A stretch of DNA of 64,000 nucleotides from Bacteroidales bacterium (GTDB taxonomy: Bacteria; Bacteroidota; Bacteroidia; Bacteroidales; UBA1715), in the NCBI GenBank assembly GCA_031286165.1, contig JAITUU010000018.1, positions 47,934 to 111,933 on the forward strand, given 5' to 3'. Positions 17,133 through 58,500 of this stretch are shown here, piece after piece. A model generated the notes under the pieces. That model was not told the DNA's origin, did no database searches, and worked only from the letters and a program-made list of their open reading frames with translations. The position numbers and the translations under genes are program-made. Every line of letters begins with the position of its first letter. Positions within the stretch are counted from its first letter, which is position 1.

Positions 17133-17155
17133 TATATAACAAAACCTATTCAACC

Positions 17156-19464: not shown

Positions 19465-20418
19465 ATGACACATTCTTATCACTTACGCTCAAAAGAAATT
19501 GCAGAAATACATACCTGCTTGATTATAGGCAGCGGACCGGCAGGCTACACTGCCGCCATTTACGCCGCTCGCGCAAATTTAAAACCGGTGCTCTACGAAG
19601 GTATGCAACCGGGCGGACAACTCACCACCACCACCGAAGTCGAGAATTTTCCCGGCTACCCCACCGGCGTTACCGGCACCGCACTGATGAACGATATGCG
19701 CTCGCAAGCCGAACGCTTGGGTGCCGACATTCGCAGCGGATACGCCACTGCGGTAGATTTTTCAGACGAATTGAAATTGGTGGAAATTGGCGGAGAAACG
19801 GTAATTGCTGCCAAAGCGGTGATTATAGCCACCGGTGCTACGGCAAAATATTTGGGACTTGCCAGCGAACAAAAATTCAGAGGCATGGGCGTTTCTGCCT
19901 GCGCGGTGTGCGATGGATTTTTCTATCGCAAGCAAACAGTAGCAGTGGTAGGCGGTGGCGACACTGCCGCCGAAGATGCTACCTACTTAGCAGGTTTAGC
20001 ACAGAAAGTGTATTTAATAGTGCGCAAAAAACACCTGCGAGCATCAAAAGCAATGCAGCACAAAGTGGCAAATACGCCGAATATCGAAATTTTATTTGAA
20101 CACGAAGTGCAGGAAGTATTGGGCGATGAACAAGGCGTAAGCGGATTGCGGCTAATAAAAGAAGGAAGGGAAGTTTATACCATAAACGTTACCGGACTGT
20201 TTTTAGCAATAGGACATCACCCGAATACAAAAATTTTTGCCGATGAACTTGATTTAGACGAAACAGGCTATATCATAACCAAACCCGGCTCTTCACACAC
20301 CAACTGCGAGGGCGTATTTGCCTGCGGCGATGTGCAAGACCCTGTGTATCGGCAAGCAATTACCGCAGCGGCTTCGGGTTGCATAGCCGCTCTCGATGTA
20401 GAGAGGTATCTTTGCTAA
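19465..20418 (+). CDS. trxB: thioredoxin-disulfide reductase
   Basis: FAD motif IIGSGPAGYTAAIYAARA, redox-active CAVCDG, NADPH motif VVGGGDTAAEDA, C-terminal ACGDVQDPVYRQAITAA. Start moved to ATG 19465. Confidence 0.95.
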   Translation: MTHSYHLRSKEIAEIHTCLIIGSGPAGYTAAIYAARANLKPVLYEGMQPGGQLTTTTEVENFPGYPTGVTGTALMNDMRSQAERLGADIRSGYATAVDFSDELKLVEIGGETVIAAKAVIIATGATAKYLGLASEQKFRGMGVSACAVCDGFFYRKQTVAVVGGGDTAAEDATYLAGLAQKVYLIVRKKHLRASKAMQHKVANTPNIEILFEHEVQEVLGDEQGVSGLRLIKEGREVYTINVTGLFLAIGHHPNTKIFADELDLDETGYIITKPGSSHTNCEGVFACGDVQDPVYRQAITAAASGCIAALDVERYLC

Positions 20419-20460
20419 TAGACACAAGACCATTAGACAGAAGACCGATAGACAAAAACT
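20419..20460. repeat. left arm of degenerate inverted repeat flanking the four-helix-bundle gene (TAGACACAAGACC / TTAGACAGAAGACC / GATAGACAAAAAC)
   Basis: tagacacaagacc (20419-20431) is the exact reverse complement of ggtcttgtgtcta (20834-20846). Confidence 0.65.
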
Positions 20461-20475
20461 TTTAATCGCAATACA

Positions 20476-20832
20476 ATGAATAATGTTAAGAAATTGATTG
20501 TTTGGCAAAAATCGAGAGAGTTTGTGAAGGATATATACACACGTACCAAACTCTTTCCGCAAGACGAATTGTTTGGTTTAACATCACAAATTCGCAGGGC
20601 GGCAATTTTCATTACATTGAATATTGCCGAAGGTTCCGGTCGGGGAACAAATAAGGAATTTGCTCACTTTCTCGATATTGCATTTGCTTCGGCATACGAA
20701 GTTGAAGCACAAATTATTCTATCGTTGGATTTGGAATTTATTTCCCAAGAAGAATATGATGTGCTGTATGAAAAAATCCAAGAAATTCAAAAAATGATAA
20801 AAAAACTAAACGACACATTACGTAGTAGTTAA
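20476..20832 (+). CDS. four-helix-bundle protein (23S rRNA intervening-sequence protein family)
   Basis: 118 aa with the family pattern LIVWQKSREF...IY..TKLFPQDELFGLTSQIRRAA..I.LNIAEGSGR....EFAHFLDIAFASAYEVEAQI. Confidence 0.85.
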   Translation: MNNVKKLIVWQKSREFVKDIYTRTKLFPQDELFGLTSQIRRAAIFITLNIAEGSGRGTNKEFAHFLDIAFASAYEVEAQIILSLDLEFISQEEYDVLYEKIQEIQKMIKKLNDTLRSS

Positions 20833-20833
20833 A

Positions 20834-20870
20834 GGTCTTGTGTCTAATAGTCTATTGTCTAAAAATCTAA
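20834..20870. repeat. right arm of degenerate inverted repeat (GGTCTTGTGTCTAATAGTCTATTGTCTAAAAATCTAA)
   Basis: See the left arm at 20419-20460. Its period 7-8 GTCT-anchored units run up to the ATG at 20874. Confidence 0.65.
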
Positions 20871-37885: not shown

Positions 37886-37913
37886 TTAGTGGTTAGTTAT
37901 TAGTGTTTAGTTG
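37886..37913. repeat. tandem heptamer array TTAGTGG TTAGTTA TTAGTGT TTAGTTG
   Basis: It starts 2 nt upstream of the lgt start codon (37881-37883, minus strand). 25/28 identical to 29067-29094. Confidence 0.75.
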
Positions 37914-37943: not shown

Positions 37944-38684
37944 TTAATTCTTAATTGGATTTCTCTTGATTGAATGTGCCAAAATATCCACAATGTGTAT
38001 TGCTGTAATAGGGCAGTTGTTTTTTTCTATATAAGCGGCTATATTCATAAGGCACGATGCTTCGGTGGAGGTAATGTATTGGGCACCGCTTTCTATGGCG
38101 TACTGCACTTTTTGCTCCACCATAGCCTGCGAAATTGCCTTTTGCTTTACCGAAAACGTGCCGCCAAAGCCGCAGCAGGTGTCGCTTTCGGGCATTTCCA
38201 CTATTTCCAAACCTTTCACCTGCGAAAGCAGTTCCCGCGGCTCGCCGCGCAAGCCGTATTCGCGCATGGCAGCACAGGAATCGTGCACACACACTTTTGC
38301 CGAAAATTCCGCACCCACATCGGTAATTTTGAGATAATTCACCAAAAAATCGCAAATTTCATACATACGCGCAGCCACTTGTTGCGCCTGCTGTTTTTCC
38401 TGTTCATTTTCAAAAAGCGATGCGTAGTGGCGTTTTACAAACCCTGTGCAGGAACCGCCCGGACTTACAATTATGTCATTGCCCACAAAATCCTGCAAAA
38501 ACTTACGAGCCATTGCCTGCGTTTGGGCAGTGTAGCCGCTATTATACGAAGGCTGCCCACAGCAACTTTGATTCGGGTTGTACTGCACTTCGCAGCCTAC
38601 TTTTTGCAGCAGTGTTATAAAATTTTCGCCCGTGCGAGGAAACAGTTGGTCTATAAAACAAGGAATGAATACTGAAACGTTCAT
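37944..38684 (-). CDS. (Fe-S)-binding cysteine-rich (CCG-domain) protein, LutA/GlcF-like
   Basis: Two CCG-type motifs (NQSCCGQPSYNSG and SDTCCGFGGTFS). 246 aa, LutA-like. No lutB or lutC adjacent. Confidence 0.8.
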   Translation of the reverse strand: MNVSVFIPCFIDQLFPRTGENFITLLQKVGCEVQYNPNQSCCGQPSYNSGYTAQTQAMARKFLQDFVGNDIIVSPGGSCTGFVKRHYASLFENEQEKQQAQQVAARMYEICDFLVNYLKITDVGAEFSAKVCVHDSCAAMREYGLRGEPRELLSQVKGLEIVEMPESDTCCGFGGTFSVKQKAISQAMVEQKVQYAIESGAQYITSTEASCLMNIAAYIEKNNCPITAIHIVDILAHSIKRNPIKN

Positions 38685-38764
38685 GAAAATTGAAAGTTGA
38701 GAGTTAAAATTGCGAGATAAAAATACAGTTTAATTGTTAATTGTTAAGTATTAATTGTAAATTT
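38684..38764. repeat. two heptamer arrays (TGAAAAT TGAAAGT TGAGAGT TAAAATT ... TTAATTG TTAATTG TTAAGTA TTAATTG TAAATTT)
   Basis: Read directly from the sequence, period 7. It begins at the lutA-like start codon. Confidence 0.6.
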
Positions 38765-38842
38765 TTTACAAAGCAGCCCTCTCTAACTCCCCCAAAGGTT
38801 AATCCGAATACTACTTGAAATCATGTTCAACAAAAAAACATA

Positions 38843-38867
38843 GATTGCTTCACTGCGTTCGCAATGA
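38843..38867. repeat. left copy of perfect 25-bp inverted repeat
   Basis: The reverse complement of gattgcttcactgcgttcgcaatga is identical to 39495-39519. The sequence also belongs to the widespread 'DCFxxxAMT'-translating REP-like family. Confidence 0.9.
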
Positions 38868-38910
38868 TGAAGGAATGGAGGGAGTTCGCAATAACGCTCC
38901 ATATATATTA

Positions 38911-38950
38911 CACTAACCCCTAACAACTAATAACTAACAACTAACTCCTA
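38911..38950. repeat. heptamer array in CAACTAA orientation (CACTAAC CCCTAAC AACTAAT AACTAAC AACTAAC TCCTAA)
   Basis: The reverse complement reads TTAGGAG TTAGTTG TTAGTTA TTAGTTG TTAGGGG TTAGTG. Followed 4 nt later by ATG 38955 of a 29-codon ORF. Confidence 0.7.
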
Positions 38951-39385
38951 AAAAATGCTCAATATCATAAAAAAATATGCCTGCGATACATTTTTTTACA
39001 CAAAACGTGAACAAGTTATGGTTTTTTGTATATTTTTGTACTAACACCCTTTTTGTAAAACTATTAACACTAATAAAAACGTTCGCAAATGCACAAAAAA
39101 TGGATTGTTTGCACCAGCAAAAACGCCATTTTTGAAAAAAACAAAAAAAATTGCATTTTTTTTCATGACCCATGCAACCTTTTTGATAGTTTATTAGTCT
39201 TATAGAAAGACACCCAAAATAGCACCATATTCCGGCACAACCGGAAATTTATATATAGAGACCCTTTTTTATTGACTTATTGGAGGTATTTTTTAGAAAA
39301 TCCACCATTGTGTTGCACTTGCTTGCACTTCTTTGTTTGAAGTGGCGTTTCGTACTGTATGCGAAATCTCTTATTGCAATGTGGA

Positions 39386-39409
39386 GATTCCTGCTTTCGC
39401 AGGAATGAC
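39386..39409. repeat. REP-like palindromic element GATTCCTGC-tttc-GCAGGAATGAC
   Basis: attcctgc/gcaggaat 8-bp stem. Paralogous in design to 9010-9034. Confidence 0.7.
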
Positions 39410-39494
39410 TGCAAAATTGATAAGAGAATACCGGCAAAAACAAGAATAACACATTGGTAGTGTAGGATAGTTCTAAAAAAAATCGCGCTTTCCG

Positions 39495-39519
39495 TCATTG
39501 CGAACGCAGTGAAGCAATC
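39495..39519. repeat. right copy of perfect 25-bp inverted repeat
   Basis: tcattgcgaacgcagtgaagcaatc, 627 bp from the left copy, 163 nt upstream of the giant-gene ATG. Confidence 0.9.
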
Positions 39520-39682
39520 CATACAATGGATTACTTCGGTGTGTCAATGGTGCAGTGATGCCGTGAGCGAATGGTTAGAAATATTCGTATAAAACATACC
39601 GCAACAGCATACACACCCAAAGCCATGAACACAAACAATACAATATATATACCCATTACAAGAACAATTAACACTTATACAC

Positions 39683-42600
39683 ATGAAATCACTTTTACGC
39701 AGTATTCTTTGCACTTTGAGTGCAGTGGTACTATTTGGCACAGGGGCTTTTGCCCAAGCAAACCTCCTTATTTCGGGAGGTAATGCCGTTGCTTCCTACG
39801 TATGCTCCAATTCGCGAGTAGCCGTGTGGGGGAAAAACGAAAGCGGAGGACTCGGATTGGGGCACTCAACTTCTCCGGTAACTACACCGCAATTAATGCC
39901 GCAAAACTCCTTTGGACCTATCACGGTAAAAATACAGCAGGTGAACTCCGGTTCGGGTAGCCACTTTGTGGCTCTTACCTGCGCCACTACCACAGGCGGG
40001 AAAAGCCAAGTGTGGTGCTGGGGAAGCAACGACCGCGGGCAAATAGGCAACGGCGTGAAAGGCGGCACGGTAACTGCTCCGGTGCGCGTGCGGGCAAGTA
40101 GCGGCATTGACGCTGCCTACAAAGAAACAGTAAGTGGCGTTACCTACTTAGTAAATGCCAAAGTGGTATATGCCGGCAACTCCTCTACCTATGCTATTTT
40201 GGAAAATGGCGACTTGGTTTCGTGGGGAGGTAATGGTACCGGAGCTAATCAATACACCCACACCTACGGTATATTGGGTAACGGCACACAAACCGATAGT
40301 TACGAAGCCGTATATGTGCTCACTGCTGCCGGACAACGCTTGAAAAACGTAGTGGCAGTGTGTGCCGGCGATAACTCCGCCTACGCGCTCGATGCCAACG
40401 GACAAGTATGGAGTTGGGGCTGGAGCCAAGGTGCGAATACGAACGGTTCCGATGCAGGTAATGGTTCTTTGGGTCGTCCTTCCGGACAAACAAACTACGC
40501 TACCAAAGTGAACTATGCCAACGGCAGCCCCATGAACAACATTAAATACATATCCTGCTCCGATGGTGCAGCCTTTGTGATAGACAATAACAACTACGTA
40601 TGGGCATGGGGTAATGGTTCTTGGAATTCGCAACTCGGTGTGCCGCAGAATGCAACCGGTTGGGAACCTCGCCAAACAGTAGGCGTGGGCGGCACCGGAT
40701 TTTTGCAGGCACTGCAAGTAGCAGGCGGTCAGGGCTTTGGTATGGGTATCACGCTCGATGGACGCGCCGTAGTATGGGGCGGTGGTGGCTGCCAAGATGG
40801 TGGTGGTGGTACTTCCATACCCGGTGGTACTGCCGATGGTATTCCTCGCTACATTACCAGCGCAGCAAATACTGCCGGAAACGTAACTCTTATCAACCGC
40901 GCCGACCACGGCGGCTGGTTTGTTGATGTCAATAATAACGTGTATGCTTTTGGCTGTAACGAAAATAAGGACGCCGGCTCCACCGGTATATTGGGAACCG
41001 GCGGTTCGAGCGGTTCTCTGAGTGCTGTTACGCAAGTTACTTTACCCACCGGCTGCGACAAGCGCGACCAAGAACCCTTTGCCGACATTTCGCCAAAATT
41101 GGTGGAAGTGTGTAAAACAGGATTTACCGGGCAGGAACTCAAATCGGGATTTACACTCGGCGGTACTACTGCTGCAAATTACACCATTACTTGGGATTAT
41201 TCTGCAACGGGTGCTGCCGGTTCGTGGACACAAATAAAAACCGGCGGAGCAAATACCACTACCAATAAAAGCCTTGCAGCCACCTCTACCACCAACGAAG
41301 GCTGGTATCGCGTAACGGTAAAATACATTGGCGGTAACGCTCCGTGCGATGGCTTCCCTCCTGCGGTAGATAGTATGCGCATAAAATTCTATACTCAAGA
41401 ATTTCAAGACCCCGGCACGCTCAAAGTAACCGATTGTGCTTCTTCGCCCAAAAAAGCAAAAGTATATGTGGCTCCCAAATCACCTGCTACGGCACCTACC
41501 ATAGCCAACCGCGTGTATAATTGGTACACCGCAAGCACCGGCGGCACTCTGCTTGCCACCACCGTAGGTTCAGCCACTGCAAGTACAACAACAGGCACAG
41601 GTTTTGCCGAAATAGAAATAGACAACTTACCCGAACTTACACCTGTAACCGACCCTCCGAAACGGATAGTGTATGTGGAAGAAACCGCCGCTGCTGCCGG
41701 TATGTTTATGAAACGAAGTAGTAACACATGCCAAACATGGACCAAAGAAAATTATTTGAATGCCGGAAATATTTCAAATCAATCGTGGACAGGCTTTACC
41801 CTCACCGAAGAGGCTACTATTAGCGAACTAAGTTTTCTTGTGCGCTTGTGGTTGTACAATGCCGGCACCGTAAGTACTACCATTCGATTTGATATTTATG
41901 CAGGTAATAAAATTCCTTCGGGAACGGCAATAGGTTCTTTAACTGCAACCGTTACTTCTTCTTCTACAAACGAAACAGCAAGTACACAAGTAGCAACTGC
42001 TATCGGAAGCGTGAAATTATCGCCAGGAAATTATGTGATAGGAGCTGCCTACACGACGGGTGTAAACAATGCCGGATTAAAAATAGGCACTACCTCGTGC
42101 ACTCTTGCTTCAAGCGGCAATGACGATGTAACAGGAAGTATTATAAAACACACCGGCATAGGCGAAGGCACTAATGCCAATCCTACTCCTGCTGCATATA
42201 CAAACGTATTTGATATTAAATTCAAAACCTCTCAGCGTTTTTGCGACCGCGTGCCTATGTACATAGTAGTAGATTGCCCCACCTGTACCAAACCAAAACA
42301 AATAGCACTTTCTGCTACCGGTAGTAATATTACCTCCGGAACACCGAAAACCGTGAATTTGTGTGCCGGTGAATCCACCACCCTTTCCACCAATAGCATT
42401 ACTCAAACCGGCTACACCGATTACACTATTCGCTGGTTCAATACCGTGAATGTACAAACCTACAATGCTTCTACCGGAGCAAATGGTACTGCACTCAGTA
42501 GTGTAAATACTTCGGCTACTGTTTCAAGTGCTTCTCTCGCAGTTCCGTACTCCGATGCTACTGCCGCAGGTAAAAAATTCTATGTGTTGGTATTCGACCG

Positions 42601-45600
42601 CAACCAACCTTTGGAAAAATCGTGCTACATGTGGGATAGTATTGTAGTAAAACAATTACCTACTCCTACCGCCACAGTTTCCGGCGGCGGCACCGTGTGT
42701 GAAGGCAATGCGGCTTCGCCGGTAATCGTAACCTTTGCCAATGGTACTACTCCTTATACCTTTACTTCTACGTATTCAGGAGGTAGCGGATTTTCTGACC
42801 AAAGCACCGGTAGCAGCAGTACCTACCAACTCAGCACTCCGCTACCTAACACACCGGGTACGTACACCTACCAACTCACGGCATTTAAAGATGCCAACGG
42901 GTGCGCAGGTACCATACCTACTCCGGCAAAACAAACCATTACCATCAATCCTACGCCTGTGGCAGAAATTAGTGCCACAAAATTGGACTATTGCGCAGAA
43001 ACTACCAGCGGTATCACGCTTTCACTCACACCTGCATCGGGAATTTCGCTCACAGGAGCAACATACGCATGGAAAAACGGCAACACAGCAGCAGGTAGCG
43101 GTGCAACTATTACCAATGCTACCAAAGGTTCGTACACCTGCACCATTACCTTAAACGGCTGTACGCACCTCACTCAGGCTATTTCTATTACCGAAAATCC
43201 GCTGCCAACATATACCATTACGGGCGATGGAGAATATTGCCCTAACGCAACTTCGCGCACTCCTGTGGTGATAACCTTTACCGGCACAGCACCTATTTCG
43301 TTCAATATTGCCAATAAAAGCGATTTCACTGCCAATAGTAGCGGACTTGTGTGGACTTCTACCACTGCCAGCGGCAGTACTTCGCCCGGAACTGTGTATC
43401 AACCTACCAATATAGAAGATGGGAACGGTTGCGTGGCAAAATCGAGCACCAATAAGGTTACGGTAATCAACAAAACCATACCCGGATTGACGGCAAGCAC
43501 TGTTCCCGACATTTGCGTAGGCACGCAATCGACCCTCAATGTGGCACAGTACGTAACCGCTGCGGGCACACCTACCTATACCATGAAATCGGGAAGTACC
43601 GGACCCGTTACTTCCGCCGGTGTACTCACTCTACCAAGCAATACTGCCATGACTTCGCCGCTCACCGTATATGTGGTGGCTACCATGCCGGCACAAGCGG
43701 GCGCAAGTTGCGAAGCATCTATTGAAATACCGGTAACTATCAATCCGCTTCCTTCGGCTACACTTGCCACTTCGCCGGTGTGTAAAGGTATTCAGGCAGA
43801 ACTCACCGCCACTCCTACCGGAGGCACCGCACCCTACACCAACTTTGCATGGACTATTAGCGGCTCAGCGCAATTAGACGCCGCTACCACCACCGCTCCT
43901 ACCAATGTTGTGCGCAGTAGTGCCGATGCCGGCACCTATACAGTGGGAGTAACCGTAACCGATAGTAAGGGTTGCGTGGCTGCCGCAGCGGCTACCACCA
44001 CCGTAACCGTAAAATCTATTCCTACCGTAGCACAGGTTACAGCACAAGAAAAATGTGTATGCCAACCAAGTGATGCTATTTCCTTTACTTCTACGCCTTC
44101 GGGAGCCACCTTTACGTGGACAAACACCAATCCTGTGATAGGACTTGCAGCGAGCGGCACCGGCAGCAGTATTTCTTCGTTTCCCACAGCCAATGGCACT
44201 CCTGCTGCCACCGGTCCTATTAGCGGCGAAATTTGGGCAACACCTTCACTCAATGGCTGCGATGGTATATCTACTAAGGTAACAAGCATTACAGTAAATC
44301 CGCTCCCTACATTTACCATAGCAAGCAATCCTACCAATGCCTGTCAAGTAGATGCAAACAACGCTGCGGCAAATGTAAGCACAAGTGCATCGGGGCTTAA
44401 TGGCGGTACTTTTGTATATAGCAGTAGCGATATTAGCACTATCAATGCCTCTACCGGCGCATTTACCACCGCCGGACTTACACCCGGCGTAAAAACTATC
44501 AAACTCGACTATACCGATGGAAACGGCTGTAAAAATTCCAACACTACCACCTTTACCATAAACACTCCGCCTACCGTAACGCTTACCGCACCGGCAAATG
44601 TATGCTGGAACGACAATCCGGTGCAATTAACCGTAACGGTGAACGGCTCTACCGTGAATTCACCAAACGGCATATTTACCGGCACCCAAGGCGGCACCAA
44701 TATGGCTAACCCCATAGCAGCAGGCGGTACAAGTAATTTTACTTATACTCACACCGATGCCAATAGTTGCGTGGGTACTGCAAGTGCAAGCATGGTTACT
44801 ACCTTTGTAGATAGACCTACATCTGCCGGAAAAACTATTCAAATACAAAGTGATAACCTCTTTACTCCGGGCGAAAATACCAACATAGATGCAGCCTTCC
44901 CTGCAAGCGGAGCCGATGCCATTCAGTGGTTTTCGGGTACTACCTGCGGCACAAATCTTGTGGGAGTGGGCGTGCAAAATAACGGACAAACCCTTGTAAC
45001 CGGCAAAACCGAAGCCGATGGCGTGGGCAACTATCCTTACCAAATTCGCGCAACAAAAACAGTGGGCGGAGTAAGCTGTTACAGTGAATGTAATCCTACT
45101 GCATTGGTAATCACTTCGTGCCCGGCACAAACACCCGGCACACAAAATGCACACTACTGCTTGGGCGAAACTGCAAGCCTTACCGCTACTCCATGGCAAA
45201 ATGCAAGCAACGTGGCATGGTTCGATAAAAACCCTGTAGGACTTACCGGCACCACCTTCCCGCAAGGCGGCGTAAACCAACTCGGTACCGGCACTACCTA
45301 CACTCCTGCCAATCAAGCAGCAGGAGAGCAAATAGTGTATGTAGCCGAATACGACCCTACCAATCATTGCTGGAGCGGCGGCGGTATTGTAAGCCTTTCT
45401 ATTCACAATAAACCTGCTCCTACTGTTACCACCGCAGGCGGTTCAAATTTCTGTGCCACCGGTAAAACTCCTTCGGAAAATCCGAAAATATTTACCCTCA
45501 CTCCTGCTCCCGACCAATTACAAACAGGAAGTACATGGAGTTTTGCACAACGCCAACCTGCCGGAACCCCTACACGAGGAGGATTTACCAATAGTTCTTC

Positions 45601-48600
45601 GCTTCCTGTAAACGATAGATGGGACGCCACTGCCGACCCATGGACGAACGGCGATACACAACGAAATCTTACCGTAACTTATACGATTAATGAAGAACAT
45701 GGTGCTTCTACTGAAAAACAAGCAACTTGTACCGATAGTAGTAAACTTACCGTTACAGCACAATTTACTCCGGCACCTCCCGCAGTGGCAGATAAATACT
45801 GGCTCATTAGCGATATTGACGGCATCCCCGCCGATTTTATAAAGGCTGCCGTGCAAGCACCGGGTGTAGAAATGAATTGGTACAGCAATGCAGATGGAAG
45901 CGGAAGTTTACAAAGCAATAGCGAAATATTTACTAATATTGGAAACATTAAGCAACAACTGAAAAAAGATGTGGGTTCTGCCGAATCGTTTACCAAAACC
46001 TTCTACATTACCCAACTCAATGGTCGCGATTGCGAAAGTACCACCACTCCGGTAAATCTTATATTGGTAAACTGTCCTTTCACCGCGCCCGACACCACCG
46101 GCAATCAAGCCTGCCGAAAAAATCTTGGCACCGGCTTAGCACTCACTGCCGTAATACCGGCAACTACTGCCACCGGCGATGCCACTCCTACTCCTTCGCT
46201 ATGGAATTGGTATGCCGACAATGGCGGCGTAGCAGGCTCCATAGTACCGAATGCACCTACCGCCGGAGGCAATACTTCTACCTACTCTTCGCCTGCGCAA
46301 ACTACTACCCGCTATTGGGTAAGTTATGTAGCCACCGAAGCAAATAGCGGTCAAGCCTGCGAAAGCCAAAAAGCACAAGTTACCCTTACCGTGTATGACG
46401 ACCCGGTAATAGGCGATATTACCTACAATGCACAAAGCGGCGTAAACATTCACCAACAGGCGAAAAACGGCGTATTGTGTAATACCGACCCTGTGGAGTC
46501 TCTTACTGCTGCGGTAAATAGAAACAATACCAACGGCACTACCACCGAAGTAAATTCATGGACTGTGGTAGGACAATCGAGCGGTGTAATTTCCGACAGC
46601 GATGGACCAAGCAATAGTTACGCACTCTTCGACCCAAGTACTTGGGGTGCTAACACTGCCGACTACGTAGTGAAATACGAAGTAACCAACAACAACGGCT
46701 GTAAAGACAGTAAAACGATTACAATTCCGGTGCAATACACCCCTGCTCCTACTACGGTGGACTACAAAGCCGCACCAAGCCCTACTGCCACGGTGCAAAT
46801 ATCAGCTACCGGCTTGCAAAGCGTGGCAAACGGATTCTCGAACGTGAATTGGTACGCCACACCTACTTCTGTTCCGGTACTTTCTACCCTCAATCCCTTC
46901 CCTACGGGCGACAATCCGAATGTGGAAATTCCCACTCCGGGTAAAAACTACTATGCAACCCAAGTAGCGCGTGCCTGCGAAAGTGAGCGCACACCGGCTA
47001 CGGTAATTATTCAATGCCCTGTGCCTGCTCCGCTTACCACCGACCGCATTATTTGCGACTACTATGCCAATCCGGAACTCACCGTACAAGGCGGCACTTG
47101 GCTCAGCGGCGCACGACCCACTACGCACGCACCGGTATTTACCTTCTACTCTGCGCAAACAGGTGGCACCGTAGTAGGTACTGCCACTGCAAGTAGTACT
47201 ACATCTACCACTGTTACATGGACTCCAACTCTGAGCACAGCCGACAAAACCCAACAACAAATTACCTATTGGGTGAGCGAAAGCAATGACGGCGCACAAC
47301 CTACTGCCTGCGAAGGTCCTCGCACTGCGGTTACTATTCAAATCCGCCGCAGCAATTCCATTACTATCAATACTCCGCCTGCTATTTGCGAAATCACTCC
47401 GCCTGCTACCACAGCAACTCCGGTGCCTGCATTCAGCGTGAGTGGCAACGACCCTGCGGGAGTAATTCAATGGTACTACGTAGCAAACACCGCTCCGGTG
47501 CAAGACCAAACAAACCCAACTCCTGCCGATGGCGTAGGTTCGGGCACAAACGGTTCTTTCAATCCATTGCGCACGGTGTGGGCAAATGCCGGAACTTACA
47601 ATATTTGGGCTACGCAAAGTCAAACTTTCTCTATTCCAACTCCGGAAAGTGTAACCTGCGTAAGCATAGCAGCACCGGCTACCTATACTATTAAACCACA
47701 ACCTGCGGCTCCTACACTCTCGCCAAACAATAGTTGCTTTGGAAGCACCAATACTCTCCTTTCGGCTGTGGGTAGCGATATTACATGGTTTCGAGCAGGT
47801 AATACTACTGCGGTGGGTAGCAATAATAGTTACCAACCAACAGACGTAAACGTGGGAACATACACCTACGAGGCTACACAAACCGTAAACGGCTGCCAAA
47901 GTACGCGAGCAAATACTACCTTCCGCATTAAAGCAATTCCTGCGGCTCCGCAAGTAAGTATTTCAAAACAAAAAATGTGCTCCTACGATGATGAACCTAC
48001 CATTACAGCGGTGCTTACTCCTGTAACAACCGCCGAAGACCAAACTGCTACTATTGCGTGGTATTCATCGGCAAATGGCGTGAATCCGCTGCCTGCGCAG
48101 TTCTCCGGCTTATCCTTCCCAGCCGATAGAACAGTGAATACCTTCCTTGCCTATCATGCTATTCAAACAGTAGAAAGTTGCAGCAGTCCTTCGGCAGGTG
48201 TAAATTACACCGTAGTAGCCCCTGTGCCGGCACCTACCAATACCAATGCTACTATGTGCGAAGGTGCTGCCACTATTCCGCCGCTCCGCACGTCATCAAA
48301 CCGTGCAAGTTGGTTTACTCAGGAATCTACTACTCCGCCGTACAACACTGCCGGAACATCGTTCTACACCGGAAATCAATACACAGCAACTTCGGGTGCT
48401 GCTGTTCCTCCGGGAATTACCTACTATGTACAAGATAGTTTCGATGGTTGCGTAAGTCCTACAAGCCCTATTACCCTTACCGTGATAGCAAAACCAACAA
48501 TCGACATAGGTTCCGATGTGAACTTCTGTATCTATGCTTCGGGCAGAGTAAATGTGGTAGAACTCACTCCTGCCGCTGCTCCTGTGGCTGCTTCGGCAGG

Positions 48601-49993
48601 CAGTATTGCATGGCGGGCTACTATGCCGGGCACTCCCTTCAATCGCTCAATTAACACACAAACCGATACAGACGGTAGTTTCTTTATAACCTTAGATAAT
48701 ACGATACTGCCAACTGCCGGCGATTACACACTTACTGCAATTTACACCGTAGCAAGTGGTAATATTACTTGTCCGAGCGACCCCGACACTATTACGGTAA
48801 CTATGAACGACCGCCCGAATGCACCGATTGTGTCATCGAAAATTATTTGTCAAGGCACCACGCTCGAACCTATTCAAGCCTTTGGTTCGCCAAATATTGA
48901 GTGGAATTTCGTGAGCGGTGCGCAAACTTTGCCCAATTGGACAGGCGACACCTACGATTTCAATCGCTTCAATTTACCAAGCATTGCCGTAGGTCAATAC
49001 TTCTTCACGCTCTTCGATACCGATGCCAGCACCGGCTGCGTAAGTAACCGCACCAATTTGAGTTTCGAGGTGGCTCCCGAAGCAAAAACAAAAATTGTGG
49101 GTCGCACCGAACTTTGTGCCACTACTTCACTTGAAGAACCCTACCACATTGCAGTAGTTCCTACCGAACGCAGCAACTATTTCTGGAGCACTTCGGGCAA
49201 TGTGTATAACTTCTCCAAAGACGGCAATGCCTATTCTCCAATGCGCTATGTGGATTGGCACGAAGCCGGAATCGACACCGTATATGTATATGAACGCACA
49301 TGGGCTGGTTGCGAAGGTTTTGATACCTTACTAGTGAAAATTGCCGAATACCCACAAGCATACTTCACATGGAGTTTGCCCGGTTCAAGCACTACCATAC
49401 AGTACTTAGACAGTTCCTACCAAGCACCGATTGTGAGCAAATACGACCCTACGGTGGCTCCTATTCCACTCTCGTACAACATGGCATGGAATTTCGACCG
49501 CTTGCCAAATATGCCTGCCGACCACATAGATATGGTGGTGGAATTTGAAGACCGATTTAATCCGATTTTGGTACACGACTACACCTACGGCTACAAAAAT
49601 CCGAAATTGATAGTTACCAACGAATTTGGCTGCTCCAGCAGTTACAGCACCGAAATCTTTGTGGATATTCGCGCCGGAGTATTTATTCCGAACGCATTCA
49701 GTCCTACCAACGCGGCAGCCGGAGTGCGAGTATTCAAACCACTTGCCTTTAACTTAGAATATGCAAAATTCTGGGTATATGACAAATGGGGTAACTTACT
49801 CTTCTACTCCGAAGACGTGCAAAATGGCTTGTTCATAGGCGCGTGGGACGGTACCTACAACGGTGAATTGCTCCAAAGCGATGTGTATATTTGGAAATTG
49901 GAAGCCAAATTCTTAGACGGCACTTCGTGGCCCGGTCAGAAAAGAGCCACCGGCGGCTACACCAACTTTGGTAATGTTACCTTAATACGATAA
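39683..49993 (+). CDS. giant (3436 aa) cell-surface protein: signal peptide, RCC1-like beta-propeller, >20 Cys-containing Ig-like modules, PKD-like module, T9SS type-B (gliding-motility) C-terminal domain
   Basis: Signal VLFGTGAFAQA. RCC1-like blades (VWGKNESGGLGLG, CWGSNDRGQIGNG, SWGGNGTGANQY, SWGWSQGANTNG, AWGNGSWNSQLG, VWGGGG). Recurrent module W[YF]..(A/S).GG..L..G..YTP....Y[YW]V.Q...GCES.R..VT(V/I). C-terminus IPNAFSPTN...WDGTYNG...DVYIWKLEAKF...GNVTLIR matches the CHU_C/T9SS type-B sorting domain pattern. Confidence 0.9.
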   Translation: MKSLLRSILCTLSAVVLFGTGAFAQANLLISGGNAVASYVCSNSRVAVWGKNESGGLGLGHSTSPVTTPQLMPQNSFGPITVKIQQVNSGSGSHFVALTCATTTGGKSQVWCWGSNDRGQIGNGVKGGTVTAPVRVRASSGIDAAYKETVSGVTYLVNAKVVYAGNSSTYAILENGDLVSWGGNGTGANQYTHTYGILGNGTQTDSYEAVYVLTAAGQRLKNVVAVCAGDNSAYALDANGQVWSWGWSQGANTNGSDAGNGSLGRPSGQTNYATKVNYANGSPMNNIKYISCSDGAAFVIDNNNYVWAWGNGSWNSQLGVPQNATGWEPRQTVGVGGTGFLQALQVAGGQGFGMGITLDGRAVVWGGGGCQDGGGGTSIPGGTADGIPRYITSAANTAGNVTLINRADHGGWFVDVNNNVYAFGCNENKDAGSTGILGTGGSSGSLSAVTQVTLPTGCDKRDQEPFADISPKLVEVCKTGFTGQELKSGFTLGGTTAANYTITWDYSATGAAGSWTQIKTGGANTTTNKSLAATSTTNEGWYRVTVKYIGGNAPCDGFPPAVDSMRIKFYTQEFQDPGTLKVTDCASSPKKAKVYVAPKSPATAPTIANRVYNWYTASTGGTLLATTVGSATASTTTGTGFAEIEIDNLPELTPVTDPPKRIVYVEETAAAAGMFMKRSSNTCQTWTKENYLNAGNISNQSWTGFTLTEEATISELSFLVRLWLYNAGTVSTTIRFDIYAGNKIPSGTAIGSLTATVTSSSTNETASTQVATAIGSVKLSPGNYVIGAAYTTGVNNAGLKIGTTSCTLASSGNDDVTGSIIKHTGIGEGTNANPTPAAYTNVFDIKFKTSQRFCDRVPMYIVVDCPTCTKPKQIALSATGSNITSGTPKTVNLCAGESTTLSTNSITQTGYTDYTIRWFNTVNVQTYNASTGANGTALSSVNTSATVSSASLAVPYSDATAAGKKFYVLVFDRNQPLEKSCYMWDSIVVKQLPTPTATVSGGGTVCEGNAASPVIVTFANGTTPYTFTSTYSGGSGFSDQSTGSSSTYQLSTPLPNTPGTYTYQLTAFKDANGCAGTIPTPAKQTITINPTPVAEISATKLDYCAETTSGITLSLTPASGISLTGATYAWKNGNTAAGSGATITNATKGSYTCTITLNGCTHLTQAISITENPLPTYTITGDGEYCPNATSRTPVVITFTGTAPISFNIANKSDFTANSSGLVWTSTTASGSTSPGTVYQPTNIEDGNGCVAKSSTNKVTVINKTIPGLTASTVPDICVGTQSTLNVAQYVTAAGTPTYTMKSGSTGPVTSAGVLTLPSNTAMTSPLTVYVVATMPAQAGASCEASIEIPVTINPLPSATLATSPVCKGIQAELTATPTGGTAPYTNFAWTISGSAQLDAATTTAPTNVVRSSADAGTYTVGVTVTDSKGCVAAAAATTTVTVKSIPTVAQVTAQEKCVCQPSDAISFTSTPSGATFTWTNTNPVIGLAASGTGSSISSFPTANGTPAATGPISGEIWATPSLNGCDGISTKVTSITVNPLPTFTIASNPTNACQVDANNAAANVSTSASGLNGGTFVYSSSDISTINASTGAFTTAGLTPGVKTIKLDYTDGNGCKNSNTTTFTINTPPTVTLTAPANVCWNDNPVQLTVTVNGSTVNSPNGIFTGTQGGTNMANPIAAGGTSNFTYTHTDANSCVGTASASMVTTFVDRPTSAGKTIQIQSDNLFTPGENTNIDAAFPASGADAIQWFSGTTCGTNLVGVGVQNNGQTLVTGKTEADGVGNYPYQIRATKTVGGVSCYSECNPTALVITSCPAQTPGTQNAHYCLGETASLTATPWQNASNVAWFDKNPVGLTGTTFPQGGVNQLGTGTTYTPANQAAGEQIVYVAEYDPTNHCWSGGGIVSLSIHNKPAPTVTTAGGSNFCATGKTPSENPKIFTLTPAPDQLQTGSTWSFAQRQPAGTPTRGGFTNSSSLPVNDRWDATADPWTNGDTQRNLTVTYTINEEHGASTEKQATCTDSSKLTVTAQFTPAPPAVADKYWLISDIDGIPADFIKAAVQAPGVEMNWYSNADGSGSLQSNSEIFTNIGNIKQQLKKDVGSAESFTKTFYITQLNGRDCESTTTPVNLILVNCPFTAPDTTGNQACRKNLGTGLALTAVIPATTATGDATPTPSLWNWYADNGGVAGSIVPNAPTAGGNTSTYSSPAQTTTRYWVSYVATEANSGQACESQKAQVTLTVYDDPVIGDITYNAQSGVNIHQQAKNGVLCNTDPVESLTAAVNRNNTNGTTTEVNSWTVVGQSSGVISDSDGPSNSYALFDPSTWGANTADYVVKYEVTNNNGCKDSKTITIPVQYTPAPTTVDYKAAPSPTATVQISATGLQSVANGFSNVNWYATPTSVPVLSTLNPFPTGDNPNVEIPTPGKNYYATQVARACESERTPATVIIQCPVPAPLTTDRIICDYYANPELTVQGGTWLSGARPTTHAPVFTFYSAQTGGTVVGTATASSTTSTTVTWTPTLSTADKTQQQITYWVSESNDGAQPTACEGPRTAVTIQIRRSNSITINTPPAICEITPPATTATPVPAFSVSGNDPAGVIQWYYVANTAPVQDQTNPTPADGVGSGTNGSFNPLRTVWANAGTYNIWATQSQTFSIPTPESVTCVSIAAPATYTIKPQPAAPTLSPNNSCFGSTNTLLSAVGSDITWFRAGNTTAVGSNNSYQPTDVNVGTYTYEATQTVNGCQSTRANTTFRIKAIPAAPQVSISKQKMCSYDDEPTITAVLTPVTTAEDQTATIAWYSSANGVNPLPAQFSGLSFPADRTVNTFLAYHAIQTVESCSSPSAGVNYTVVAPVPAPTNTNATMCEGAATIPPLRTSSNRASWFTQESTTPPYNTAGTSFYTGNQYTATSGAAVPPGITYYVQDSFDGCVSPTSPITLTVIAKPTIDIGSDVNFCIYASGRVNVVELTPAAAPVAASAGSIAWRATMPGTPFNRSINTQTDTDGSFFITLDNTILPTAGDYTLTAIYTVASGNITCPSDPDTITVTMNDRPNAPIVSSKIICQGTTLEPIQAFGSPNIEWNFVSGAQTLPNWTGDTYDFNRFNLPSIAVGQYFFTLFDTDASTGCVSNRTNLSFEVAPEAKTKIVGRTELCATTSLEEPYHIAVVPTERSNYFWSTSGNVYNFSKDGNAYSPMRYVDWHEAGIDTVYVYERTWAGCEGFDTLLVKIAEYPQAYFTWSLPGSSTTIQYLDSSYQAPIVSKYDPTVAPIPLSYNMAWNFDRLPNMPADHIDMVVEFEDRFNPILVHDYTYGYKNPKLIVTNEFGCSSSYSTEIFVDIRAGVFIPNAFSPTNAAAGVRVFKPLAFNLEYAKFWVYDKWGNLLFYSEDVQNGLFIGAWDGTYNGELLQSDVYIWKLEAKFLDGTSWPGQKRATGGYTNFGNVTLIR

Positions 49994-49994
49994 A

Positions 49995-50036
49995 AGAAAA
50001 GCCCACAACCAAAGGTTGTGGGCTTTTCTTTTTTTC
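49995..50036 (+). terminator. strong rho-independent terminator of the giant gene
   Basis: agaaaagcccacaacc (49995-50010), aaa loop, ggttgtgggcttttct (50014-50029), then a T-run. Confidence 0.9.
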
Positions 50037-50044
50037 TATCTTTG
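50037..50044 (+). promoter_or_regulatory. candidate -7 promoter box
   Basis: tatctttg matches TAnnTTTG, 17 nt upstream of ATG 50062. Confidence 0.45.
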
Positions 50045-54908: not shown

Positions 54909-54929
54909 TTGTTAGGGATTAGTTATTAG
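54898..54929. repeat. tandem heptamer array TTAGTTG TTAGTTG TTAGGGA TTAGTTA TTAG
   Basis: Read directly from the sequence. The array overlaps the last codons (V-S-C) and supplies the TAG stop (54906-54908) of the activase gene. It lies between convergent genes. Confidence 0.75.
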
Positions 54930-54934
54930 AACAT

Positions 54935-55261
54935 TCACTTGATAGTGATGTGGTTGCTCATGATTCGTTTTATGAGAATAGAACCGTTGCTGCGAAGATT
55001 GTATATAATATACCACGTAGTTCGTTTATTCCGCTTATACGCTTTTACATAGTGCCCATATTTTTTGTGTACTTCGTACACGGGTTGTTTGTGTGTGGTA
55101 GCCGTAGCAAGCAGTGCGCACTCATTTTGCAAGGAGTAAAAATACTGTAACACTTCGTCATACGTAAGCGTGGGTTCGTTTGCGTGCGTTGCCGACCATT
55201 GCAATAATGCCTTGAATAGCATACGCAGGTCTATGAGTGCTCGTTTACTGTAATATACCAT
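54935..55261 (-). CDS. RelE/ParE-superfamily toxin-like protein
   Basis: Start set at ATG 55261 (MVYYSKRALIDLRMLFKAL...). N-terminal Y.S..A..DL and C-terminal TTWYIIYNL..NGSILIKRIMSNH follow the ParE pattern. The track start is a GTG 9 nt upstream. Confidence 0.5.
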   Translation of the reverse strand: MVYYSKRALIDLRMLFKALLQWSATHANEPTLTYDEVLQYFYSLQNECALLATATTHKQPVYEVHKKYGHYVKAYKRNKRTTWYIIYNLRSNGSILIKRIMSNHITIK

Positions 55262-55400
55262 ATTCCGCACATAGTTTATCTATATCGTGCTTTGCGGCAG
55301 TCCAAAATTCACTATGAGAAAGATAGCCGCGCTGACTTTTATTGTTTGTGCGCACCGTTGTTTTCTTAATCGGTTGCACTTTTTTTATCGCTACTGCCAT
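55245..55400 (-). CDS. 51-aa candidate antitoxin (not in ORF track)
   Basis: Manual translation: MAVAIKKVQPIKKTTVRTNNKSQRGYLSHSEFWTAAKHDIDKLCAEYGILQ*. It overlaps the toxin-like ORF start by 17 nt and is preceded by a -7 box 23 nt upstream. Confidence 0.4.
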   Translation of the reverse strand: MAVAIKKVQPIKKTTVRTNNKSQRGYLSHSEFWTAAKHDIDKLCAEYGILQ

Positions 55401-55423
55401 GTATATCATATTTTAGGTTCATG

Positions 55424-55431
55424 CAAATATA
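55424..55431 (-). promoter_or_regulatory. candidate -7 promoter box for the TA-like pair
   Basis: Plus-strand caaatata is TATATTTG on the minus strand, 23 nt upstream of ATG 55400. Confidence 0.45.
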
Positions 55432-55463
55432 ACGGTTTTTACTGCAAAAAATGTATTTTCTAC

Positions 55464-55506
55464 AAAAAAAAAGAGGCTGTTCTCGGTGAGAACAGCCTCT
55501 TTTTTA
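55464..55506 (-). terminator. rho-independent terminator of the FIVAR-repeat giant gene
   Basis: agaggctgttctc (55472-55484) is complementary to gagaacagcctct (55488-55500), flanked by an A-run (a T-run on the minus strand) and a T-run. Confidence 0.85.
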
Positions 55507-55519
55507 CATTACTTCTTTT

Positions 55520-58500
55520 TTATTGTTTGATAATAGATTGTGTTTCCACAGTTCCATCTTCAAAGGTTACACGTACTACGTAAGTGCCTTGTGCAAGCGT
55601 TGCTACATTGATAACCGCTTGGTTGCTATTTGGTGTTTCCACCGCTACCACTGCGCCGCGAGTAGATACTACGGTAATCGTGCGGATTGCTTTACCTGCG
55701 CTCACGGTTACTTGCGAAGTTGCAAGCGTTGGATACACGCGGAGTGCTGCTGCATCTACTTCATCTATATCGGTACATTCGCCGGTATATGAACCTAAGA
55801 AGGTATCGAATTTTGCTTGCAAACTATTGAATATATTATCTATATCAGTTTGGTTTTTCGCTTTGTTGTGGTCGGCTTTCGCTGATTCAAGTGCATTTAC
55901 AATGGCTGTTCTCGCTGAATATGGATAGCCTGGACCAATGCTGCAATTTACAAATACTGCGCCATTATTAATTTCACTTTGTACTTGTGCAAAGAGCATG
56001 CGAAGCATTTGGTCGTTTCCTGCTGAAATTTTCGCATTGTTATATGCTTGAATTGCATCTTGCAACACATCATAAGCATTGGTAAGTTGGCTTTGCTCGG
56101 TTGCGCTTGCAAGTACCGCTTCTGCTGCTTTAATAGCATTGGTAAGTGCAGTAACAGCCTCTTGCGGATAGTTACCATTGCTTGTTCCAATGTTGTTGTT
56201 CGATAGTTTCAATGCTTTGTTTGCATTGGCTATTGCTGCTTCAAGCGGACCTTTTTCAAGGCTTACCGTAGAGTTCAAGAATAGGTCGCGAGCATCTTTC
56301 AGGTCTATCACTGCTTGGTCAACTTCTTCTTGGGTAGCATCTTCGTTATTTTTCACAAGGGTAGCATCGAGCATTGCAGTTAGCAAAATTGCTTTTGAAC
56401 CGTTTTTATAGTTGCCACCTTGATTTTGCTCTTTCGCGCTACCATATAGTGCGGTAACTTGGTCTATGAGCAGATACAAATCGGTTTTGATAACGTTTGA
56501 GCCGGGTATTTGCGCTGCACTGAAAGCATCGACTGCATCTTGCAATGCTTTGGTAGCATTATCCACTATTTCTTGCGTAAGTTGCGGATGTCCTTTTGCT
56601 GTTTGTGCAGCACCTATGGCATCACGAAGAGCATCTTTTGCTTCTTGCGGATATTGGAAAGGTTTATCACCGGGTTGAGCAATACTGTGTATGTCATTGG
56701 CTTGTTTTATCAAGTTTTCAAGCGCAGTGCTGTTTACAAGTATTTGTTTTGCTTGGAAGTCTTTCACTGCTTGGTCTAAGTCGGCTTTCGCTTTGTTTAT
56801 ATCTGCTTGGCTTGAACCTGCTGCATTAAGTACTATTTCTGCTATACGAATGGCATCTCTCAAATCCGATTTTGAACCATAGGGGTAGCGTTCGTGGTGT
56901 TCGCCTTCTATTGCATTGTCATAAGCATCGTTTGCCGCATTGATAGATGCTTGGAGGGCACCGGTAGAAACACTTTGTTTCGATTGCTCGAAAGTGCTTA
57001 TAGCAGAGAGCAACGCCTGAGTTCTTGCAGTTACATTCGCAGCCGTAGAATTTGATTTATCGTATTCTGCTTGTGCTGCATCTACCGCATCTTTCAATGC
57101 CAAGAATGCCGATTCGGGGTATTGGTTGTTACCATTTCCTTGCGGAGAGTTGAGCAACAAAGCGTTTGCCGTGTTCAATGCTGCAAGAAGAGCGTCTTTG
57201 TTCACCACTATTTTTGCATTATTTACGTCTGTTATAGCCTTCGCCAAATCAATAACCGCTTGGTCTATTTGTGCTTGGGTAGCAGTAGTGCTTGCAAGCG
57301 TTCCTTGTGCAGAGGTTATTGCATTGTTGAAAATAGTAACAGCCGATTGTGGGTATTCTCCGTTTCCGCTGCCCACTTTCACGTCATCTTTCAAAGCAAG
57401 TGCTTCGGCAATTTTATCGCGGAGTGCTTTGCGGTCTATGGTTACTTTTCTGCTGTTGAAGAGAGCAATAGCATTGTTGAGAGCAGTAACTTCGGCATCA
57501 ATAGCAGCTTGAAGCGCAGAAGGATTATTCAAAGTAGTAGTAGCATAACCCACTGCATTTTGCAATGCTTGTATAGCACCGGCAGCGTATTGACCGAAGT
57601 CTTCGCCTTCTTGCGGATTGCTTGCAAGAAGTCCGTTTGCAATGTTAATAGCGGCTTGCAATTCACTTCTGTCTATGCTGTTGGTGCTTGCATTTACCCA
57701 ATTAGTAACTGCTTGATTCAGTGCTGCAAGGGCGGCATTTACTTCGGCTGTGGTTGCTTGCGGATTGGTATTTACCACAGTAGCATCTTCAATTGCTTTT
57801 GCAAGTGCTGTACCTATTGCTACCGGTTTTTGACCGTCAAGTTCTCCGTAAGTAACAGAATTGTATTTCTCGTTTGCTCCGGTAAGTGCATCGGCTAAGG
57901 CAGTTTTGTCCACCACTTCGGGAGTAAAGGCGTCCATTACCGATTGAAGGGTCAATCCTGCTGCTACCAAATCGCTTTGTGTAGAAGCAGCGGCATCGGC
58001 TACTGCTTGTGCATCGGCTATGGCATTGGTAAGAGCGGTAATTTTGCTTTGCAAATAGAATCCGTTTCCGGTACCCGGTTTCACAGCAGGGTCGGTAAGT
58101 TTGGCTTGTGCTTGGGCAATTTTTGCGAGTAAGGCATCTATTGCGGCTTGCAAGTCAATTTTTTTACCGTTGAAAATACCGATAGCACTTTCCAAATTGC
58201 TTATGGCAGTTGCTATGTCATCGCCATCGGCACCTGCATTATCTACCACTGCTTGTGCAGTGTTGATTGCGGTTTTGAAGGTTGATTTTGAACCACTTTC
58301 GTAGCAACCGTTGGCAGAGCATTGGTCGTTTGCTGCATCGTGAAGTCCGTTTGCTTGTGCAATTAAGTCTATCAAGGCTGTTTTGCTTACCACATTGGGT
58401 ACAAAGGCTTCAATTGCGGCATTGATGGCTGCCGTGCGGGCATCTACTTGTGCTTGGGTAGCAAGGTCATCGGCATTGGTGGTTTTACCATTGCTTATGG

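Follow-up and report, generated by a model that had tools for sequence, protein, structure and literature searches.

A perfect inverted repeat upstream of a giant surface-protein gene in an uncultured Bacteroidales bacterium: very likely two copies of a CGTC-tagged hairpin repeat

Among the described families of bacterial hairpin repeats, two stand closest to the feature examined here. CGTC-tagged repetitive extragenic palindromes (REPs) carry a CGTC (or TGTC/CCTC) tag, a stem that starts with AT and a CCA tail, frequently occur as dimers in opposite orientation, and are present in Bacteroidetes (Di Nocera 2013, PMC3733652); Neisseria dRS3 and Rickettsia RPE-4/6 are members of this superfamily (Di Nocera, De Gregorio & Rocco 2013, BMC Genomics 14:522). 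The hairpins termed NTS or Ssn-related motifs (SRMs) are bound in single-stranded form by Ssn proteins, site-specific nucleases of single-stranded DNA (ssDNA) that cut a few nt 5' of the tag (Chenal 2025, PMC11893778). In Neisseria, Ssn lowers the integration of transforming DNA that bears the NTS (Chenal et al. 2025, Nat Commun 16:2388, PMC11893778). The same authors likened the arrangement NTS-ssnA-NTS to an insertion sequence, and the published biochemistry of Ssn binding and cutting covers only the Neisseria and Wolbachia homologues (PMC11893778). The published search pattern for SRMs is HGTCWYN(0-2)YYVSBRHN(0-5)WNVSBRGN(0-2)RNCYNB. Here we analyse a stretch of 64,000 nt (referred to as the window) from an uncultured Bacteroidales bacterium (assembly GCA_031286165.1, the 136-kb contig JAITUU010000018.1, positions 47,934 to 111,933 of the forward strand), in which a perfect 25-bp inverted repeat lies in the gap between a lutA-like gene and a gene for a 3436-aa surface protein (the giant gene). 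An earlier note on this DNA proposed that the pair brackets an invertible promoter (inverton), and offered as an alternative that the arms belong to a dispersed REP-like family with other members in the same gap. Our results support the latter proposal: the feature very probably consists of two units of the widespread family of CGTC-tagged REPs and Ssn-related motifs, which belong to a small cluster of such units in a long intergenic region between divergent genes and happen to face in opposite directions.

The inverted pair and its repeat unit

The left arm, GATTGCTTCACTGCGTTCGCAATGA (38843-38867, plus strand), is complementary at 25 of 25 positions to the right arm (39495-39519, minus strand), with 627 nt between the two; the coordinates, identity and spacing given in the earlier note are all borne out. 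The match stretches to 28 nt at 96% identity (38840-38867 / 39495-39522). With up to three mismatches allowed, the arm sequence has only these two matches in the window and none in 100 dinucleotide shuffles, and the pair is both the longest and the best inverted pair with a spacing of 1.5 kb or less anywhere in the window. The gap that holds it (38685-39682) measures 998 nt and has a GC content of 34%, against 44% for the window as a whole. The pair is therefore far above chance in random sequence, but it is not above expectation once the arms are recognised as members of a repeat family that occurs widely.

The extent of the repeat unit was defined from its copies in other genomes. Among the matches listed, 147 of 149 copies have a C directly after ...GCAATGA and the remaining two have a T, and a G or an A precedes GATTGC... 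in 148 of 149; the C supplies the GTC part of the tag. Given the conservation at positions +1 and -1, we take the conserved unit to be RGATTGCTTCACTGCGTTCGCAATGAC, with the 25-nt identity as its invariant core; the identity between the arms ends exactly at the borders of the family unit. Read on the tag strand, the unit has the form (C/T)GTC-ATTGCGAA-CGCAGT-GAAGCAAT-CCA and a length of 27-30 nt, and the tag strand of an exact copy is CGTCATTGCGAACGCAGTGAAGCAATCCA. The tag is damaged in the left arm, which has the rare T at +1; the right arm is intact (CGTC...CCA). The 30-mer that contains the right arm (39493-39522) recurs verbatim in several unrelated contigs.

The arms are accompanied by further units in the same gap (Table 1). 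The succession of a full unit and a half unit that is seen at the left arm is also found in the metagenome loci L083, L084, L114 and L154. Between the arms, a scan for tagged hairpins recovered an 8-bp stem with a 4-nt loop at 39384-39410 (folding free energy, dG, -7.8 kcal/mol; z -5.7). Of the two other members that the earlier note had placed in this gap, the one at 39386-39409 is therefore real and corresponds to this hairpin, whereas the one at 39352-39377 could not be confirmed as a family unit. The hairpin equals the Neisseria NTS save for the first base of the tag, a compensatory change of a C-G to a T-A pair, and the tail. A unit of this type is also present in the nearest relatives, metagenome-assembled genomes from termite guts, where it forms a perfect inverted dimer (L216, 2195-2272; dG -34.6). 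At the other end of the gap, the right arm and its degenerate partner (39492-39552) fold together as one 61-nt hairpin (dG -14.1, z -4.2), and none of 200 shuffles folds as well. Elsewhere in the window, a canonical CGTC-tagged hairpin, CGTCATTCCGCACTTGATGCGGAATCTC, is located at 9008-9035 on the minus strand (8-bp stem, dG -9.0, z -3.5), just downstream of a hexapeptide-transferase gene and at the edge of the gap between two convergent genes.

The arm unit resembles CGTC-tagged REPs in its unpaired (C/T)GTC tag, its palindrome starting with AT and its CCA-type tail; in being dispersed, mostly intergenic and present in several phyla, Bacteroidetes included; and in the frequent pairing of units in opposite orientation, with each dimer folding as a single long hairpin. 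At this locus, the unpaired tag reads CGTC in the right arm, CATC through mutation in the left arm and AGTC in the 39384 unit, and the right arm has both the CCA-like tail and the opposite-orientation partner. The units at 39384-39410 and 9008-9035 also agree with the description of CGTC-1, an 8-bp stem with a 4-nt loop. A literature search with the DNA and peptide strings of the repeat was unproductive.

The repeat in other genomes and beside GIY-YIG genes

The exact 25-mer was found in at least 120 public metagenome contigs and in two IMG/VR contigs. The sequences that flank it are unrelated to each other and to the window, with no more than about 30 nt around the 25-mer ever matching, and the contigs that carry it span a GC content of 0.29-0.67 (matches listed). 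Near-identical units reside on plasmids or chromids of Novosphingobium resinovorum, N. aromaticivorans, Methylobacterium, Methylosinus, Legionella lytica, Nostoc punctiforme, Fischerella and Aulosira, and the N. resinovorum plasmid pSA1 holds them in at least 40 places. The loci seeded by the exact 25-mer (L079-L200) contain, among the matches listed, 151 exact copies in 122 loci. A single copy is present in 106 of these 122, a predominance of isolated copies that the earlier note had itself named as evidence against an inverton; in the other 16, all 29 adjacent pairs of exact copies are in direct orientation. As judged by sequence comparison, the arms represent a repeat that many bacterial phyla share, and not locus-specific recombinase sites.

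When units of the ATTGC...GCAATGA type are counted irrespective of exact identity, the fetched loci contain 336 of them, and neighbouring units are typically inverted with short spacers. Tags point outward in 71 of the adjacent pairs (median gap 27 nt) and inward in 34 (median gap 37 nt), making tags-outward the commonest arrangement.

Clustering of the open reading frames (ORFs) in the 122 25-mer loci yielded one strongly recurrent family only, a GIY-YIG protein of 91-99 aa (PF01541). Ssn genes themselves encode GIY-YIG proteins of ~94 aa and cd10448 type. Twelve GIY-YIG genes are present in 11 loci of the 25-mer-seeded set (764 kb), versus none in 819 kb of control Bacteroidota loci. Pattern-matching units are situated within about 100 nt on both sides of all of these genes except three of Bacteroides type (two in L110 and one in L088), and those three are bracketed by variant units of the form ATCCT.../ATTCT..., as recognised by eye. 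The reverse test was made with ten Ssn-like genes of named isolates, chosen by protein similarity; all ten are flanked by the tagged hairpins of their own species. The published SRM pattern detects units beside six of these ten (those of Neisseria, Azospirillum, Rhizobium, Aeromonas, Photobacterium and Sphingobium). We do not put forward the association of GIY-YIG genes with REPs as a new finding, since it has already been published (PMC11893778).

The arm family is comparable with SRM-ssn-SRM arrangements in that GIY-YIG genes for proteins of 91-99 aa have its units on either side, in metagenome contigs and not in the window, and with NTS and SRM hairpins in that the tag strand begins with CGTCAT and has a C after the palindrome. 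Units of the ATTGC...GCAAT type flank Ssn-like GIY-YIG genes, and related forms surround those of Planktothrix and Spirosoma (L211, L212). In L190, L079, L144, L096 and L115, the adjoining unit contains the identical 25-mer and the Ssn-like proteins are 48-51% identical to the query from L110; the five contigs differ widely in GC content, and the repeat is far better conserved than the adjoining nuclease. REPINs and the GTAG REPs associated with RAYT (Bertels & Rainey 2011; Nunvar et al. 2010) offer a further parallel, being likewise short hairpins with inverted doublets as their replicative or structural unit and with repeats on either side of an associated single-copy nuclease gene. They differ from the present family in their tag (GTAG, not CGTC) and in their enzyme, which is an IS200/IS605-type tyrosine (HUH) transposase and not a GIY-YIG nuclease; moreover, the 627-nt spacing at this locus far exceeds that of a REPIN spacer.

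Under the reading that we favour, the arms would be two separate copies of a dispersed 27-30-nt hairpin repeat of the CGTC-tagged REP superfamily, whose units have also been called SRM or NTS. Units would have accumulated as a small cluster in the AT-rich divergent region, comprising the left arm with its half-unit, the NTS-like hairpin, and the right arm with its degenerate partner. The opposite orientation of the two copies would then be an accident of two placements with no programmed switch, and the 627 nt between them would be ordinary promoter or leader DNA. From what has been published on Ssn, we would expect the units to be bound as ssDNA hairpins by a cognate Ssn and cut a few nt 5' of the tag, and to spread or persist through their association with Ssn rather than through a site-specific invertase. 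An effect on the giant gene, if any, would be indirect, arising from hairpins in the leader or, by analogy with Neisseria, from restriction by Ssn of incoming ssDNA near the locus. The role that the Neisseria NTS has in natural transformation is not transferable to an uncultured Bacteroidales bacterium.

The favoured reading and its rivals

Several results weigh against the reading of the pair as two units of this family. The published SRM pattern has no match in the window and none among the 336 ATTGC-type units, and it fails for both arms and for the 39384 hairpin; nor was an Ssn gene or a remnant of one found in the window, so that the locus departs from NTS and SRM systems on both counts. 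The 25-mer alone folds poorly, with an outer stem of 5 bp, or of 7 bp if a G-T pair is admitted (dG -2.8, z -0.5). In a comparison of stem and loop sizes, it does not have the 8-9-bp stem and 4-5-nt loop of the four published families of CGTC-tagged REPs; the units at 39384-39410 and 9008-9035 do have 8-bp stems. The dimensions of the 25-mer unit are a perfect 5-bp ATTGC/GCAAT stem and a 12-nt centre. Among the matches listed for the 122 loci, no other locus has two exact copies in inverted orientation. The genome also looks poor in such units, which within the 64 kb are confined to this gap and to 9008-9035, and two perfect copies 627 nt apart are consequently a local coincidence that calls for a local duplication or for two insertions. 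To these points are added the direct repeat at the outer ends of the arms and the prospect of rare inversion, both of which belong to the rival explanations considered below.

The earlier note's preferred explanation was a programmed inverton, in which a trans-acting tyrosine or serine invertase flips 38868-39494 and thereby toggles the promoter of the giant adhesin gene. In arm length, in spacing and in its place ahead of the gene for a very large surface protein, the pair fits the general architecture: the segment has the size of roughly 100-800 bp expected of an inverton (627 nt, with arms matching at 25 of 25 nt), and the Mpi/Tsr invertons of Bacteroides similarly enclose a few hundred bp between inverted repeats of ~20-30 bp, ahead of a gene for a surface structure. 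The segment contains one exact -7 box, directed toward the giant gene, and this is, as the earlier note had it, the single TAnnTTTG match in 38685-39682. The window, however, contains 94 matches to TAnnTTTG where 73 are expected, or ~1.1 per kb, so one box in a gap of 1 kb is what chance would supply. No TTG or TTTG that could serve as a -33 element is present 17-23 nt upstream of the box, and the ATG of the giant gene is 652 nt away, whereas the boxes in front of eight other genes in the window are 16-92 nt from the start codon; in either orientation of the segment, it would remain ~650 nt from either flanking gene. Since lutA likewise lacks a perfect box, the argument from an only box carries little weight.

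The arms of an inverton are expected to be recombinase-specific sites restricted to the one switch or to a small set of co-regulated switches, and the arms here speak against an inverton as well, for they are a generic dispersed repeat of many phyla whose perfect identity is explained without recombination, and none of the 29 adjacent pairs in the multi-copy loci elsewhere (matches listed) is inverted. No integrase, resolvase or transposase domain is encoded in the ORFs of at least 150 aa across the 64-kb window, in agreement with the earlier note, which had seen no recombinase gene. A consideration in favour of the inverton is that some Bacteroides invertons are acted on by recombinases whose genes lie far away, and a distant enzyme acting in trans could exist here.

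As for the two orientations, an independent Logan contig (L078, SRR14710891_6303) is 100% identical to the window and has the segment in the same orientation, so that the two assemblies agree. Built at k=31, it extends without interruption from lutA across the left arm and the entire interior, and it ends exactly at 39522, the last base of the 30-mer CGTCATTGCGAACGCAGTGAAGCAATCCAT. Other contigs contain this 30-mer verbatim, and the break is repeat-induced at k-1. Its interpretation as a sign of inversion was rejected, because an inversion polymorphism should break a k=31 contig at 38867 and near 39524; if both orientations were abundant, the contig would branch where the left arm meets the interior, and it is unbranched there. 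The flipped segment is predicted to create the junctions ...GCGTTCGCAATGA joined to CGGAAAGCGCGATTTT... and ...CCTCCATTCCTTCA joined to TCATTGCGAACGC..., for which the strings GCGTTCGCAATGA joined to CGGAAAGCGCGATTTTTTTTAG and CCCTCCATTCCTTCA joined to TCATTGCGAACGCAGTG can be used in read mapping. In short, the locus is unlike the Mpi/Tsr invertons in its dispersed arms, in the lack of a recombinase domain among the ORFs of at least 150 aa in the 64 kb, in having no convincing outward promoter at a functional distance, and in showing one orientation in both assemblies. An invertible promoter is not supported, and we consider it very improbable.

Inversion of another kind, an unprogrammed and rare event of RecA type between the 25-bp repeats with no regulatory role, deserves equally little credence as an account of the pair. 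Two perfect inverted copies 627 nt apart would permit it, and rearrangements mediated by REPs are known in enterobacteria. Repeats of 25 bp just reach, or fall short of, the length that homologous recombination usually needs to be efficient, and neither assembly shows a sign of such an event. As judged from assemblies only, the segment may nonetheless invert at low frequency.

The earlier note had also left a choice between two independent insertions and the termini of a miniature inverted-repeat transposable element (MITE). Two independent units are the best reading of our data. In the alternative, the whole 677-bp segment (arm, 627 nt, arm) would be a single non-autonomous mobile unit with SRM units as its terminal inverted repeats, and could be a gene-less derivative of an SRM-ssn-SRM element inserted in a divergent promoter region of ~317 nt with duplication of CATA. 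The arms face each other with their tags inward, as do the units around the Ssn-like genes of L190, L191 and L176 (325-366 nt between units), and the likeness of NTS-ssnA-NTS to an insertion sequence (Chenal et al., PMC11893778) points the same way. Directly outside each arm stands the 4-nt sequence CATA (38839-38842, 39520-39523), a direct repeat that would fit the footprint of a transposition, but given the flank preferences of the family (A/T at -3/-2, G/A at -1) it has a chance expectation of roughly 1-2% and is suggestive only. Removal of the segment would leave ~154 and 159 nt, a normal intergenic size. That insertions of such a kind occur in this genome is indicated by a small-gene cassette bracketed by inverted repeats (20415-20850) that is absent from a relative.

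A MITE is expected to be present as several copies of the whole element in its genome; no second copy of the interior was found in the window, in more than 200 fetched loci, or in plasmids or phages (no match to 38868-39494), and its only called ORF (52 aa) forms a singleton cluster, from one contig, among 15 billion proteins. A search of the interior with hidden Markov models (HMMs) and with filters off detected no GIY-YIG remnant. The Logan contig is unbranched at the left outer junction and breaks only where the 30-mer of the right arm is common family sequence. Furthermore, 7 of 10 other convergent pairs with a spacing of 150-1500 nt also lack an Ssn gene, and each arm has a family context of its own: the left one is accompanied by a half-unit and the right one by a partner. 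We regard a MITE-like element as improbable, if somewhat less so than either form of inversion, and the fully specified version, a gene-less SRM-ssn-SRM derivative that would have transposed into the promoter region of the giant adhesin gene and left a CATA duplication, as marginally more doubtful still than the general one.

The surrounding locus and what the pair means

The features of the gap and its two flanking genes are collected in Table 1.

Table 1. Coordinates of the features in and beside the gap between the lutA-like and the giant gene
Feature	Position	Strand	Details
lutA/lldE-like (Fe-S) CCG-domain gene	37944..38684	-	Pfam CCG 1.8e-33; NCBI MDR2962657.1
Left arm, unit U1	38843..38867	tag strand -	exact 25-mer; tag CATC, mutated from family CGTC/TGTC
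Interior	38868..39494		627 nt, AT-rich, without credible gene or RNA family match
Partial 3'-half unit GTTCGCAATAACG	38884..38896	-	17 nt after U1; 13-nt, 92% match to tag end of right arm
-7 box TATTTTTG	39031..39038	+	only exact TAnnTTTG box in the gap, either strand
Small GC-rich hairpin TTCCGGCACAACCGGAA	39230..39246		between -7 box and giant gene; weak terminator-like match on both strands
CGTC-1 / NTS-like hairpin	39384..39410	-	tag strand AGTC-ATTCCTGC-GAAA-GCAGGAAT-CTC
Right arm, unit U2	39493..39522	tag strand +	CGTC-ATTGCGAACGCAGTGAAGCAAT-CCA-T; tag and tail intact
Degenerate partner of U2, GGATTACTTCGGTGTGTCAATGG	39528..39550	-	8 nt from U2; tags-outward dimer typical of the family
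Giant gene: 3436-aa RCC1/PKD/Ig_7 surface protein	39683..49993	+	Pfam matches

The start codon of the lutA-like gene is 158 nt from the left arm and that of the giant gene 163 nt from the right arm. Searches with Rfam gave only chance-level matches in the gap and, in the whole window, one tRNA elsewhere. The earlier note's description of the giant protein as a substrate of the type IX secretion system (T9SS) is plausible, yet weakly supported: the C-terminal match to CHU_C (T9SS type-B) is sub-threshold, at 21.6 bits against a cut-off of 27. Its nearest homologues are 41-43% identical, and an exact look-up found no record of its sequence, while exact-protein look-ups of lutA and lgt led to one further assembly only, Logan SRR14710891. 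The best relative of lutA is 85% identical, and its upstream region is not syntenic. In the relatives that share ROK at 90% identity or more, homology is lost 18 nt upstream of lutA (window 38702 / L216 9477). Because synteny ends there and the giant gene has no close homologue, no comparison with an empty site was available.

The nearest relatives are termite-gut Bacteroidales that share the gene order ROK-lgt-PDDEXK_3-lutA-NusG-like; they carry an extra PDDEXK_3 gene between lgt and lutA, and the giant gene and everything to its right are absent from them at this locus. Immediately after the stop codon of the giant gene, a 26-nt, 88% hairpin with a 3-nt loop is followed by a T-run (49985-50039), most likely the intrinsic terminator of that gene. 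Another inverted pair (37886-37910 / 38920-38944; 25 nt, 88%) brackets the whole of lutA, with its right arm inside the interior; it is rich in TTAGT/CTAAC, of low complexity, and probably a simple-sequence coincidence.

Other features of the window lie farther off. In the cassette at 20415-20850, inverted repeats of 21 nt (90% complementary) enclose 394 nt with an unannotated ORF of ~118 aa (MNNVKKLIVWQKSREF...), which we take to resemble four-helix-bundle proteins of the kind encoded in 23S-rRNA intervening sequences. In the relative L222, no more than 59 nt separate the two genes that flank the cassette here, so that the region has the look of an inserted cassette with a small gene. Another giant surface protein (2804 aa) is encoded at 55520-63934 on the minus strand, with FIVAR, DUF4972 and Listeria-Bacteroides repeats and a clear Por_Secre_tail T9SS signal; a region of 611 nt (54909-55519) lies downstream of its gene, before a convergent neighbour. 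Finally, ~1 kb at 16159-17155 has neither an ORF of at least 150 aa nor an Rfam match, and contains a possible 128-aa ORF (16316-16702) and an 82-aa lipoprotein-like ORF (16826-17074).

Turning to what the pair means, the mobility of Ssn/SRM elements has so far been hypothesised only, and the MITE-like explanation, if true, would be direct evidence that such elements are mobile and spawn non-autonomous offspring, as in the RAYT/REPIN system. Under the favoured reading of two family units, the locus carries a caution for searches of other genomes: inverton finders look for exactly such a signature, a perfect inverted repeat whose arms enclose a few hundred bp ahead of a gene for a surface protein, and here it would be made by two copies of a widespread hairpin repeat. 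Units of 30 nt also fragment short-read assemblies, as the Logan break at the outer end of the right arm shows. Judged from its letters, the unit is of a type that escapes the published SRM pattern, here in an uncultured Bacteroidales bacterium. Since ATTGC-type units are invisible to that pattern, SRM censuses based on it underestimate the family, especially in Bacteroidota and Cyanobacteria.

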